Shown piece after piece: positions 23,367-49,567 of a DNA stretch of 64,000 bases; within the stretch, counting starts at the first letter, position 1, and each line of letters starts with the position of its first letter. Made by a program: the position numbers and the translations under genes. This DNA is from Escherichia phage HX01: sequence record NC_018855.1; one strand, written 5' to 3'. Under the pieces are notes generated by a model that searched no databases, was not told where the DNA came from, and saw nothing but the letters and a program-made list of their open reading frames with translations.

Positions 23367-23396
23367 GTTTACATTATAGATGGACTATAGTATAGT
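23367..23396 (+). promoter_or_regulatory. early promoter
   Basis: GTTTAC, 17-nt spacer, TATAGT, followed by TAGTCCTATC motif. Confidence 0.5.
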
Positions 23397-44653: not shown

Positions 44654-44683
44654 GTTTACAACTAAGTAGGTCTATGATATAGT
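44654..44683 (+). promoter_or_regulatory. early promoter
   Basis: GTTTAC, 17-nt spacer, TATAGT, TAGTCCTATC motif downstream. Confidence 0.5.
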
Positions 44684-44709
44684 AGTCCTATCTAAAAGAG
44701 GATAACATC

Positions 44710-45165: not shown

Positions 45166-45195
45166 GTTTACAACAAGGTAGGATTATGGTATAGT
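45166..45195 (+). promoter_or_regulatory. early promoter
   Basis: GTTTAC, 17-nt spacer, TATAGT. Confidence 0.5.
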
Positions 45196-45223
45196 AGTCC
45201 TACTGAAACATGAGGAACACAAA

Positions 45224-46290: not shown

Positions 46291-47616
46291 ATGCAATTGA
46301 ATTCTCGTAATCTAAAAAGTATTATTGATAACGAAGCCTTAGCATATGCGATGTACACCGTTGAAAACCGTGCAATCCCAAACATGATTGATGGATTTAA
46401 GCCGGTTCAACGTTTTGTGGTTCATCGTGCGTTAGATTTGGCTCGTGGTAATAAAGAAAAATTTCATAAACTTGCGTCAATTGCAGGAGGTGTTGCAGAT
46501 TTAGGTTATCATCATGGCGAATCTTCTGCACAAGATGCAGGTGCATTGATGGCTAACACATGGAACAACAACTATCCGTTGTTAGATGGCCAAGGCAACT
46601 TTGGTTCTCGAACAGTCCAAAAAGCTGCAGCATCTCGTTATATTTTTGCTCGTGTAAGTAAAAATTTCTATAACGTATATAAAGATACTGAATATGCTCC
46701 AGCTCATGAAGATAAAGAACACATTCCGCCAAAATTCTATCTTCCTATTATTCCGACAGTTCTTTTGAATGGCGTCTCTGGTATTGCAACCGGTTACGCA
46801 ACAAATATTCTGCCTCATAGTTTTAAATCAGTCAAAAAGGCTGTATTACAAGCTCTTCAAGGTAAAAATGTCACTAAGCCAAAAGTTGAATTCCCGGAAT
46901 TCCGTGGTGAAGTACATGAAGTTGATGGGCGTTATGAGATTCACGGAACATATAAGTTCACATCTCGCACTCAAATGCAGATAACTGAAATCCCATATAA
47001 ATTCGACCGTGAAACGTATGTGAGTAAGGTTCTTGACCCGTTGGAAGACAAAGGTCTAATCTCATGGGAAGATGATTGTGGTGAACACGGCTTTGGGTTT
47101 AAGGTGAAGTTCCGTAAAGAGTACTCGCTTCCTGATGATGAAGAGCTACGTCATGAAAAAATCATGAAAGATTTTAGTCTCATCGAACGTCGTTCACAAA
47201 ACATCACAGTGATTAATGAAAAGGGTAAATTAGCAGTCTACGATAACGTAGTGGACTTAATCAAAGATTTTGTTGAAGTCCGTAAGACTTACGTTCAGAA
47301 ACGTATTGACAACAAAATCCTTGAATCTGAAAAAGCGTTTAAACTTGCTTTTGCTAAGGCACACTTCATCAAAAAAGTTATTACAGGTGAAATTGTGATT
47401 CAGGGCAAGACTCGTAAAGCTTTGACTGAAGAGCTAGCACAAATCGAAATGTATAAAGAACATGTCGATAAACTGGTAGGTCTTAACATCTTCCATATCA
47501 CTTCCGACGAAGCACGTAAACTAGCAGAAGAAGCTAAAGCTAAGAAAGAAGAAAATGAGTATTGGAAGTCTACCGATGTTGTGACAGAGTACACTAAAGA
47601 CTTGGAGGCACTTTGA
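46291..47616 (+). CDS. 52: gp52 DNA topoisomerase II medium subunit (GyrA-like)
   Basis: 441 aa versus 442 in T4; N-terminus MQLNSRNLKSIIDNEALAYAMYTVENRAIPNMIDGFKPVQR typical of GyrA/ParC-type subunits. Confidence 0.9.
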   Translation: MQLNSRNLKSIIDNEALAYAMYTVENRAIPNMIDGFKPVQRFVVHRALDLARGNKEKFHKLASIAGGVADLGYHHGESSAQDAGALMANTWNNNYPLLDGQGNFGSRTVQKAAASRYIFARVSKNFYNVYKDTEYAPAHEDKEHIPPKFYLPIIPTVLLNGVSGIATGYATNILPHSFKSVKKAVLQALQGKNVTKPKVEFPEFRGEVHEVDGRYEIHGTYKFTSRTQMQITEIPYKFDRETYVSKVLDPLEDKGLISWEDDCGEHGFGFKVKFRKEYSLPDDEELRHEKIMKDFSLIERRSQNITVINEKGKLAVYDNVVDLIKDFVEVRKTYVQKRIDNKILESEKAFKLAFAKAHFIKKVITGEIVIQGKTRKALTEELAQIEMYKEHVDKLVGLNIFHITSDEARKLAEEAKAKKEENEYWKSTDVVTEYTKDLEAL

Positions 47617-47692
47617 GTGCCCTAGCCTTAGGATTTCTCGGTGCAATAGCTGCACTAGTGATTTGGCTGTATTGGTTGGACAAACATGATTA

Positions 47693-47712
47693 GGGAGCTT
47701 CGGCTCCCTTTT
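47693..47712 (+). terminator. rho-independent terminator
   Basis: GGGAGC-ttcg-GCTCCC hairpin followed by TTTT. Confidence 0.6.
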
Positions 47713-47733
47713 GTGCATTTTTCTCACAAAACA

Positions 47734-47762
47734 GTTTACATGTGCTTCAAACATGATATTAT
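47734..47762 (+). promoter_or_regulatory. early promoter with embedded MotA-box-like TGCTTCA
   Basis: GTTTAC, 17-nt spacer containing TGCTTCA, TATTAT; near-identical copy at 48056. Confidence 0.5.
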
Positions 47763-47801
47763 AGACCTATCAAAACAAAACAACCAAATTGGAGAAATAA
47801 A

Positions 47802-48017
47802 ATGTCTAAAATGAAATTAACCCAAAACACAACTACTCGTTTTGGTAAAGTTAAACCTGGTATGAATGCTCCCCGTAAAGCACTTGTTGAAGAATTAAAT
47901 TTCTTAGAAGTTGAAATCAATTCTTTAGTGGTTCGCGGTTCAAATGGACATCGTTTAGAAAAGCTTCGTTCTAAAAAGGCAAAACTTATTGGCCTTATTA
48001 AAGAAATGAGTTTGTAA
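47802..48017 (+). CDS. hypothetical basic protein (71 aa)
   Basis: ATG with GGAGAAATAA ribosome-binding site; shares promoter, leader and first three codons with motA. Confidence 0.5.
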   Translation: MSKMKLTQNTTTRFGKVKPGMNAPRKALVEELNFLEVEINSLVVRGSNGHRLEKLRSKKAKLIGLIKEMSL

Positions 48018-48055
48018 ATTTTACCAGGGCTTTTGGAAAAAGAGCCCAAAATAAA

Positions 48056-48084
48056 GTTTACTTTTGCTTCAAACATGATATTAT
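48056..48084 (+). promoter_or_regulatory. early promoter for motA
   Basis: GTTTAC, 17-nt spacer containing TGCTTCA, TATTAT. Confidence 0.5.
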
Positions 48085-48121
48085 AGACCTATCAAAACAA
48101 ATACTAATTTGGAGAAATAAA

Positions 48122-48754
48122 ATGTCTAAAGTTACTTATATCATCAAAGCTTCTGAAAACGCTCTGAATGAAAAAACTGCTGCAATAATGGTTTATATCA
48201 TTAAGAACAACTTCACCACTGCTGCCAATGTCCGTGAAGCTCTGGAAGCGGAATACAATGCATCGGTTGTTAACTCTAACATTGGTGTATTGATTAAGAA
48301 AGGTTTAGTCGAAAAATCTGGTGATGGACTTATAGCAACAGGCGAAGCAATGGATATTATCCAAAAAGCTGCAGACCTCTTTGCCCAAGAAAATGCTCCA
48401 GAACTTCTTCAGAAACGTAACACTAGAAAAGCACGTGGAGTTACTCCTGAAATGCATGAATTAGCAAACTTTGTTTTTGAAAATATTAAAGATAAAGTTG
48501 AAGTTAAAGAAATTGGTGAAAACCGTAGTAACTTGGAAGTTCGATTTGCAAAACGAGTTCTAGGTATTCGTCAGATCGAAATTCGTCGAAATGGTTCTCT
48601 TAGAATCTTTGCATACAACATGTCAGAAACCGAATCAAAGCTGTTTACTTCTCTTGAAAATGATGTTAAGATTAAGATCGGTGGTAAATATACTTACATT
48701 GACTTCCCTAATGTGTCCAAAGAAATCATTACCCTTGTAACTAACGTACTGTGA
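48122..48754 (+). CDS. motA: MotA middle-transcription activator
   Basis: 210 aa versus 211 in T4; MSKVTYIIKAS...VNSNIGVLIKKGLVEKSGDGLI matches T4 MotA as recalled. Confidence 0.8.
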   Translation: MSKVTYIIKASENALNEKTAAIMVYIIKNNFTTAANVREALEAEYNASVVNSNIGVLIKKGLVEKSGDGLIATGEAMDIIQKAADLFAQENAPELLQKRNTRKARGVTPEMHELANFVFENIKDKVEVKEIGENRSNLEVRFAKRVLGIRQIEIRRNGSLRIFAYNMSETESKLFTSLENDVKIKIGGKYTYIDFPNVSKEIITLVTNVL

Positions 48755-48764
48755 GGAATACATA

Positions 48765-49109
48765 ATGAATAAGCTGAATATTATTAACGAACTTCGTAAA
48801 TGTGCAGAACCTACTCAGGAAGGATGGGATATTTGGTACCACGGGGCTTATCTTGGAACTATAGTTAAAGTTAAAGCTGGGTTATATTTAATTATTCGCG
48901 AAAATTCTGAATTCCCTAATGGAGTAGCTCCTGGCGGTATACGTAAAAACTTTATGGCAGCGATCAGTTCATTTGTTGATGCCGCTTACGAAATCTATAA
49001 AGAAGATTATAAAGAATATCAGCAGTCACAACCGGTTATTCGTTCGATTGGTGTAAATAAACAAGCACAAAAATCTATTTGGCAACGTATTAAGGAATGG
49101 TTTAAATGA
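48765..49109 (+). CDS. hypothetical protein (114 aa)
   Basis: ATG ORF with GAGGAA ribosome-binding site. Confidence 0.5.
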
Positions 49110-49567
49110 AATCATTTAAAGAACGTTTAGAGCTATTAGATTTGGCCTTGTCTCGTGAGACTCCTGAAAGTCTAGCAGAAAAATTACAGTCCTACGGTTA
49201 TAATTATTCTGCTGATGATGTAATGAATGAAGTTCCTGAAATCTGTTGGCAAACGTGCTATTGGAATAATGACCAAAAAGTTCAACGTGTTATAGTATGT
49301 GCAGCTAATAGGTTTAAATTGAAGAGTGGTGGAACTCTGGTTATTCCTGGAGTTCGTCATTACTCTAAAGATATGGCTGAAGTACTTGATATAGTTGGTC
49401 CTCAATTAGTCTCGCAACAAGTTTGTGGTGACGATCAAGGCTTTATCGACCAATACTCTAATTACTGGACTCGTGAAGAAGCAATGGTTATTGCAACGTA
49501 TGCTGGACAGGTACGTATTGAACGTGGCGGAAGCGAGAAAGAACTTTATTCAGAGGACCTTTATTAA
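49106..49567 (+). CDS. hypothetical protein (153 aa)
   Basis: ATGA-coupled ORF. Confidence 0.5.

Follow-up and report, generated by a model that had tools for sequence, protein, structure and literature searches.

PeSLs are composites of a stem-loop, an early promoter, a Shine-Dalgarno sequence (SD) and a start codon, and they are enriched beside variable ORFans (Arbiol 2010, PMC2839356). In the published model the open reading frame (ORF) between two such elements is excised as a mini-circle and one chimeric PeSL is left, with re-integration of the circle being possible; the experimentally mapped mini-circle crossovers fall in the interval from the -10 to the ATG or in that from the SD to the -10 (PMC2839356). 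For the T-even phages, the later description gives the form TTTACW-N17-TAYWAT with a hairpin just upstream of the promoter (Comeau 2014, PMC4122927). Here we describe a tandem pair of closely similar promoter-leader-start modules in Escherichia phage HX01 (NC_018855.1), one placed before a small gene with a 71-aa product (ORF71) and the other before motA, the activator of middle-period transcription. The window is the whole 64,000-nt stretch of HX01 that was analysed, and all coordinates are those of the window.

We consider it quite likely that the repeated segments represent two PeSL-type immediate-early cassettes in tandem, which would co-express ORF71 and motA and which, as direct repeats, mediate the loss, homogenisation and replacement of the intervening gene. 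Both show a T-even TTTACW...TAYWAT promoter with an adjoining upstream stem-loop and, at the 3' end, an SD followed by a start codon; further, they are of a kind repeated in the genome near variable small ORFs, and the indels and replacements found at this locus have their junctions inside the cassettes. The PeSL class and its mechanism have already been described, and the HX01 pair is a clear example of that known process.

The PeSLs of RB49 and phi1 (PMC2839356) resemble the HX01 pair in the composite nature of the cassette, in the repeats flanking small ORFans, in the chimeric cassette that remains after ORF loss in close relatives and in crossovers between the -10 and the ATG. They differ in having a near-perfect TTGACA-N17-TATAAT promoter and G/C-tract stem-loops that often lie between or overlap the -35 and the -10, whereas HX01 has a GTTTAC T-even promoter with the stem-loop upstream, and its downstream cassette serves an essential regulator, motA. 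Moreover, circles were shown experimentally in RB49 and phi1, whereas the HX01 pair is known from its genomic products alone. Closer in form are the PeSLs of T4 and PST (PMC4122927; for example the ndd.4/.5 exchange): these share the TTTACW-N17-TAYWAT promoter, the stem-loop just upstream and the 3' SD plus ATG, belong to the same ndd-ac-52-motA early region and are proposed to undergo the same mini-circle integration and excision. The HX01 copies, at 90% identity in the core, are far more alike than typical members of a PeSL family, and the population data add conversion mosaics and several junction classes to the earlier picture. The text of Arbiol 2010 never mentions motA, and the parts of Comeau 2014 consulted describe no motA slot.

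The T4 motA promoter itself is comparable in its site after gene 52, a small membrane ORF and a terminator hairpin, in its flank CACAAAAC-GTTTAC, in GGAG and in the motA start ATGTCTAAAGT. Unlike the HX01 arrangement it is a single copy with another spacer and -10 (AACCAAAGCATACTGTGG TACTAT), and no ORF lies between the promoter and motA. Some other Tequatroviruses (NBG2-like), unlike T4, have acquired a cassette with a 75-aa ORF (ORF75) and a Dhakavirus-type promoter, to which we return below.

The repeated module and the small gene behind it

The sequence-only reading had described 47734-47810 and 48056-48130 as near-identical, and 70 of the 77 aligned columns match; the repeat had been read correctly, and every element listed for it is found in both copies, namely GTTTAC (47734 and 48056), TGCTTCA, TATTAT, GGAG (47791 and 48111) and ATGTCTAAA (47802 and 48122). 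With 9 nt added upstream the repeat becomes 47725-47810 versus 48047-48130, in which 76 of 86 columns match and the one indel, of 2 nt, lies in the leader; repeat-family detection returned D1 at 91% and D2 at 84%. Two blocks are exact: one of 37 nt, TGCTTCAAACATGATATTATAGACCTATCAAAACAAA (47743-47779 and 48065-48101), runs from TGCTTC across the -10 to CAAAACAAA, and one of 22 nt, TTGGAGAAATAAAATGTCTAAA (47789-47810 and 48109-48130), forms the 3' end of both copies. The sigma-70 hexamers read TTTACA-16 nt-TATTAT and TTTACT-16 nt-TATTAT, TGn precedes both -10s, an A/T-rich flank lies on the 5' side of each copy, and transcription is predicted to start about 7 nt past the -10. The leaders, of 31-33 nt, are A/C-rich and unstructured, with GGAG seven bases upstream of the ATG in each copy. 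A structured leader or riboswitch-like element was rejected, as the leaders fold no better than shuffles; an Rfam scan of 47500-48300 gave no match at E <= 1.

Part of the similarity is generic to the early-promoter family of the window. A scan for GTTTAC-N16-18-TAnnnT gave 18 matches, of which about 16 are promoters in intergenic positions ahead of genes, and many of the 18 sites have in common GTTTAC, a TGn-extended -10 and a downstream AGnCCTATC motif. When the promoter cores (-30 to +20 relative to the first base of the -10 hexamer) were compared in all 153 pairings of these sites, the ORF71/motA pair ranked first, with 90% identity against a mean of 46% (standard deviation 11%); its non-consensus and otherwise variable spacer is likewise 90% identical, where the mean is 42%. 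In a search that tolerated as many as 3 mismatches, a 46-nt pattern matched the two repeat sites alone in the window, and had no match in 100 shuffles. The twin arrangement is present in about 75 independent Mosigvirus records and is therefore not an assembly artefact.

The second-ranked pair in the same comparison consists of promoters at 44654-44690 and 45166-45202 on the plus strand, 512 bp apart, with 76% identity in the core and 80% in the spacer, and a third related copy lies at 23367. These promoters may be another recombining cassette set.

The coding sequences downstream of the two copies had been called unrelated, and this is borne out: BLASTP gives an E of about 1 and the shared part is Met-Ser-Lys. 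That ORF71 might be a decayed duplicate of the motA N-terminus was considered and rejected, as the similarity ends at Met-Ser-Lys and ORF71 is under purifying selection. Its product belongs to PHROG 6200 (1.6e-39), a family of unknown function, and is 71 aa long at 12 of 13 loci compared from Mosigvirus and Dhakavirus. At the remaining one, in Escherichia phage ECCR664, the homologue has 68 aa and an altered C-terminus (…RQNLLALLKK), which reflects either a 3'-end frameshift or a sequencing error. Against the Dhakavirus homologues the ratio of nonsynonymous to synonymous divergence (dN/dS) is 0.19-0.22, at a dS of about 1.3. The conserved length, the dN/dS of about 0.19 and the PHROG family of its own argue against an untranslated duplicate, which the sequence-only reading had left open, and by these comparative measures ORF71 behaves as a real gene under purifying selection. 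A single-sequence AlphaFold model (predicted local distance difference test score, pLDDT, 78) has a disordered N-terminus followed by a helical hairpin (helices 23-45 and 50-70). A structure search of this model against the PDB returned generic helical hairpins only, none at E <= 0.001, and a Pfam search with ORF71 gave nothing significant.

The start of the gene reads ATGAA(C/T)AAG in Dhakavirus, against ATGTCTAAA in Mosigvirus. One possibility is that motA sequence overwrote the start of ORF71 in Mosigvirus, another that the first three motA codons came with the original duplication and that it was the Dhakavirus start that diverged later.

Alleles of the motA slot in three genera

The window belongs to a Mosigvirus, an RB69-like member of the T4-type phages, and its segment 47600-48800 is best matched by Escherichia phage ST0 (99.6%). 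About 155 related Mosigvirus records exist, about 75 of which encode ORF71 by a tblastn count, and an even sample of 59 records divides into 30 with one copy of the promoter module and 29 with two. Alignment of the window to the one-copy phages phi25-307 and O157 typing phage 3 leaves a clean 320-nt gap: their lone promoter has the flank, spacer and leader of copy 1 and continues into motA codon 4, which puts the crossover in the 22-nt SD-ATG block.

Junctions were surveyed in 22 relatives with the help of two markers that tell the copies apart. Marker A is the triplet directly behind GTTTAC, which is ATG or ACG in the first copy and TTT in the second; marker B is the leader sequence, AAACAAAACAACCAAATT for copy 1 and AAACAAATACTAATTT for copy 2. 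Eight one-copy genomes have the copy-1 flank, spacer and leader joined to motA. In two others, AV113 and mar007P3, the copy-2 form of marker A (TTT) stands with the copy-1 form of marker B, and mar007P3 bears an unusual -10 variant, TAGTATAAACC, known elsewhere from copy 1 of the conspecific phage APCEc01. RB69, also one-copy, combines a copy-1 flank and a marker A of ATA (nearest to the copy-1 form) with the copy-2 leader; to judge from these markers, either its junction falls in the 37-nt core, in which case the missing unit is 322 nt, or its allele is the ancestral state. Patches have also moved between the copies of two-copy genomes: copy 1 of SA79RD and APCEc01 has the copy-2 marker A, and copy 2 of UGJNEcP1 has the copy-1 leader. 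On the evidence of the marker patterns, the one-copy chimeras and the mosaics are the products expected from unequal crossing-over and non-reciprocal exchange between the repeats. The junctions fall in the same zones as the published mini-circle crossovers. On the trees of both flanks, alleles with one copy lie scattered among those with two, and a one-copy phage, moha, and the two-copy APCEc01 are classified in one species.

The layout recurs in the Dhakaviruses JS98, Bp7 and VR5, where a homologue of ORF71 is again accompanied by two copies of the promoter. Identity between the window and JS98 is 0.67 in the 3' part of gene 52, 0.70 in ORF71, 0.72 in motA and 0.87-0.89 in the promoter cores. 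As ORF71 has diverged in step with gene 52 and motA, it has probably been in the slot since before the Mosigvirus/Dhakavirus split. Within each genus the two copies agree: both Dhakavirus copies have TGCTTT, ATACTAT and GGAGAT, and both Mosigvirus copies TGCTTC, ATATTAT and GGAGAA. The only fixed differences between the genera in the core are those common to both copies, and the sites that track copy identity across the genera lie almost all outside the core, in the upstream flanks and the leader indel. In this distribution of substitutions the promoter copies show signs of concerted evolution.

The ancestral state was read from the motA upstream regions of T4, Roth16, Marfavirus, Moonvirus, Karamvirus and others. 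The upstream flank of copy 1 (CACAAAACAGTTTAC) matches that of the T4 motA promoter (CACAAAACGGTTTAC), and the leader type of copy 2, CAAAACAAATA...GGAG, is common to the motA leaders of Marfavirus, Moonvirus and Karamvirus. This comparison shows the copy-1 flank CACAAAAC-GTTTAC as the apparent ancestral flank and the copy-2 leader as the apparent ancestral motA leader, which would imply that the ancestral single promoter resembled the RB69 allele. The two-copy state would then have arisen by insertion of a unit comprising the ORF71 leader, ORF71, the hairpin and a promoter core before the split of Mosigvirus and Dhakavirus, and this unit would since have been lost more than once. The common one-copy alleles, in which an ORF71-type leader precedes motA, are obtainable only from a two-copy parent and are thus secondary deletions.

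ORF71 is one of several occupants of the slot. In a scan of IMG/VR with a 25-nt core, each Dhakavirus genome had 3-4 sites, each before a different small ORF. An IME341-like Dhakavirus has an unrelated 73-aa ORF, ORF73 (MKTLNINS…; 1108-1326 of its locus), in the motA slot, with the right junction at the -10. ORF75 (MKFKIENE…), again unrelated, fills the slot in an IME281-like Dhakavirus and in many Tequatroviruses (NBG2-like; 469-696 of the NBG2 locus), and occurs in 138 phage records at at least 95% protein identity. Between NBG2 and the IME281-like phage, identity is 26-44% upstream, 96-100% from the -10/+1 of promoter 1 onward and roughly 50-80% within motA; the 96-100% block spans ORF75, the hairpin and the core of promoter 2 and ends in its leader, and the exchanged segment is therefore one repeat unit. 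The slot is empty in T4, in RB69 and in one Dhakavirus contig, the last with a chimeric leader. Mosigvirus homologues of ORF73, 63-66% identical, lie about 87 kb from motA (about 154.4 kb in the ST0 record), so that cassettes also change locus. IME08 seems to bear ORF71 and ORF73 in tandem (165977-166518 of its record).

From these alignments the motA slot is a cassette exchange site, with boundaries that lie inside the promoter modules. The sequence-only reading had proposed promoter-cassette duplication or recombination between promoter modules, and the comparative data show both. The locus is a natural case that illustrates with unusual clarity how small early genes are gained, lost and exchanged by T4-type phages via portable promoter cassettes, in that the same slot is empty or holds any of three unrelated genes across three genera and the crossovers can be located to the base. 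With it the PeSL model takes in RB69-like and JS98-like phages, and the current understanding is left unchanged. Lying directly before motA, the master switch of middle transcription, the slot is placed where cassette turnover could alter the motA leader and possibly motA expression; for phage engineering, it would seem to offer an insertion site that is tolerated and has immediate-early expression built in.

Proposed mechanism and rival readings

If the pair functions as other PeSLs do, each cassette would give an independent immediate-early transcript, so that ORF71 and motA would be provided with the same promoter, 5' untranslated region and translation start; the two genes should share their timing and probably the same RegB-type shut-off at GGAG. 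At the DNA level the pair acts as direct repeats of 75-86 bp. Recombination between them removes the ORF71 unit of 320-322 bp and leaves one chimeric promoter before motA, non-reciprocal exchange keeps the two copies alike, and the same homology lets other small-gene cassettes enter the slot or replace ORF71. The role in recombination is shown by the genome comparisons, and the regulatory role we infer from the promoter and leader sequences.

A strong RegB site is taken here as an intergenic, unpaired GG*AGRAYARAA in the ribosome-binding site of an early gene. Both copies read GGAGAAATAAA, in which GGAG is unpaired and followed by an A-rich tail, and on this resemblance RegB control of both GGAG sites is plausible.

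Several points weigh against the interpretation as paired PeSL-type cassettes. Promoter activity, the formation of circles and all function are read from sequence and by analogy with T4, RB49 and phi1. The concerted signal in the core amounts to two fixed sites only, plus a few sites in the leader; the RegB-like tail fits the strong consensus at 5 of 7 positions; and the absence of a U-run makes terminator function of the second stem-loop doubtful. Ordinary homologous recombination between co-infecting phages could also produce the interspersion of alleles without many independent deletions, and the direction of change is ambiguous for the RB69-type allele.

The likeness of the two copies could in principle be due to selection with no exchange at all, old and independent paralogous promoters being kept alike by the need of ORF71 and motA for equal strength, timing and translation signals. 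The cores are 87-89% identical across genera, against about 70% in the coding flanks, and homology to the core is evident in the motA promoters of Marfavirus, Moonvirus and Karamvirus; purifying selection on the motA-type promoter is by this measure real. As the whole explanation it is quite improbable, since it accounts neither for the strain-specific patches that move between copies and the chimeric single promoters, nor for the genus-specific substitutions present in both copies at sites free to vary in other early promoters, nor for the sharp 96-100% block of the ORF75 cassette bounded by promoter elements. A history of gain instead of loss, in which Mosigvirus began with one copy and certain strains took up ORF71 and its promoter only recently, after which the unit spread, is improbable on other grounds: the identity of ORF71 to its Dhakavirus homologue (0.70) is like that of gene 52 (0.67) and motA (0.72) and speaks for long residence, and most one-copy alleles join an ORF71-type leader to motA, the source of which can only be a two-copy parent. 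This history does accord with the RB69 allele, whose arrangement is the ancestral one inferred from T4, Roth16, Marfavirus and Karamvirus, and with the proposal that PeSL circles integrate as well as excise (PMC2839356).

The remaining alternatives concern the spacer motif TGCTT(C/T)A, which might be a MotA box; MotA would then govern both promoters, by auto-repression or by middle activation, and the duplication would serve to place ORF71 under MotA. Copy 2 (TTTTGCTTCA) and the Dhakavirus sequence (TTCTGCTTTA) fit the consensus (a/t)(a/t)TGCTT(t/c)a, nGCTT is kept in the motA promoter spacers of five genera, and the T4 spacer has AAAGCA (inverted TGCTTT) ending 8 nt before the -10, the same distance as the direct TGCTTC of the window. 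However, the box ends 7 bp from the -10, against 11-13 bp in middle promoters, with no usable -10 at the correct spacing; the motif is lost in O157 typing phage 3 (CGCTT) and ESCO47 (CGCGT), is 1-2 bases off a pyrimidine-rich tract common after GTTTAC in the promoter family, and the Hinton 2010 review mentions no MotA auto-repression. We hold such an operator to be highly unlikely. A middle promoter is defined by an excellent -10 and, about 12 +/- 1 bp upstream of it, a MotA box with its centre at -30; TGCTTCA was rejected as part of one on spacing, as 7 bp separate its end from TATTAT and there is no TAnnnT 11-13 bp further on. A broader version, in which the motA slot is a cross-genus landing pad with a MotA-box-like operator, captured genes being expressed immediately and shut off together with motA by MotA feedback (and RegB), is very unlikely as well; if true, it would amount to a self-regulating gene-capture site tied to the early-to-middle switch.

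Features of the locus and neighbouring genes

The features of the region are collected in Table 1. The motA product is identified by Pfam MotA_activ (1.1e-39) and MotCF (4.6e-9) and by PHROG 1345 (4e-90), and is annotated motA in relatives. In Bp7, motA is annotated as two coding sequences (1030-1239 and 1239-1664 of the Bp7 locus), a sign that the record contains either a frameshift or a sequencing error.

Table 1. Positions of the cassette pair and adjoining features of phage HX01, in window coordinates.
Feature	Position	Strand	Parts and basis
Gene 52, topoisomerase II medium subunit	46291-47616	+	
26-aa hydrophobic ORF, MSALALGFLGAIAALVIWLYWLDKHD	47613-47693	+	TTG start overlapping the gene 52 stop (TTGA)
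Stem-loop 1	47692-47724	+	AGGGAGC-UUCG-GCUCCCU (47692-47709), then U-rich tract; RNA fold
Repeat copy 1	47725-47810	+	-35 GTTTAC 47734-39; TGn 47754-56; -10 TATTAT 47757-62
Repeat copy 1, downstream parts			predicted start near 47769; 33-nt leader; SD GGAG 47791-94; ATG 47802 followed by TCT AAA
ORF71, small gene, putative cargo of the excisable unit	47802-48017	+	PHROG 6200
Unit missing from one-copy relatives if the crossover is in the 22-nt SD-ATG block (320 nt)	47811-48130	+	
Stem-loop 2	48027-48047	+	GGGCUUUU-GGAAA-AAGAGCCC, no U-run after; RNA fold
Repeat copy 2	48047-48130	+	-35 GTTTAC 48056-61; TGn; -10 TATTAT 48079-84; predicted start near 48091
Repeat copy 2, downstream parts			31-nt leader; SD GGAG 48111-14; ATG 48122 followed by TCT AAA (motA codons 1-3)
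motA, activator of middle-period transcription	48122-48754	+	Pfam, PHROG

Both cassettes are preceded by a predicted stem-loop. Stem-loop 1 folds at -15.7 kcal/mol (z -3.7), with none of 200 shuffles as stable; a terminator scan flagged the hairpin on the minus strand only, the records of relatives annotate terminators at the site, and T4 has an equivalent hairpin at the same place. Judged by fold and position, it is probably the intrinsic terminator of the gene 52/small-ORF transcript as well as the 5' part of cassette 1. Stem-loop 2 (-12.2 kcal/mol, z -3.2) is 87% conserved relative to JS98 and is an annotated terminator in relatives; it is possibly an attenuator, and would form the 5' part of cassette 2.

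The 26-aa ORF after gene 52 carries no annotation in most of the relatives examined, and its position is that of T4 motA.1 (49 aa) and of an ATG-start membrane peptide of 34 aa in Dhakavirus. Downstream of motA, at 48765-49567 on the plus strand, lie arn.4- and arn.3-like ORFs, annotated "anti-restriction nuclease" in several relatives. The PHROG matches of the arn.4-like protein are only to families of unknown function (PHROG 1594), and the label is probably an annotation carry-over.

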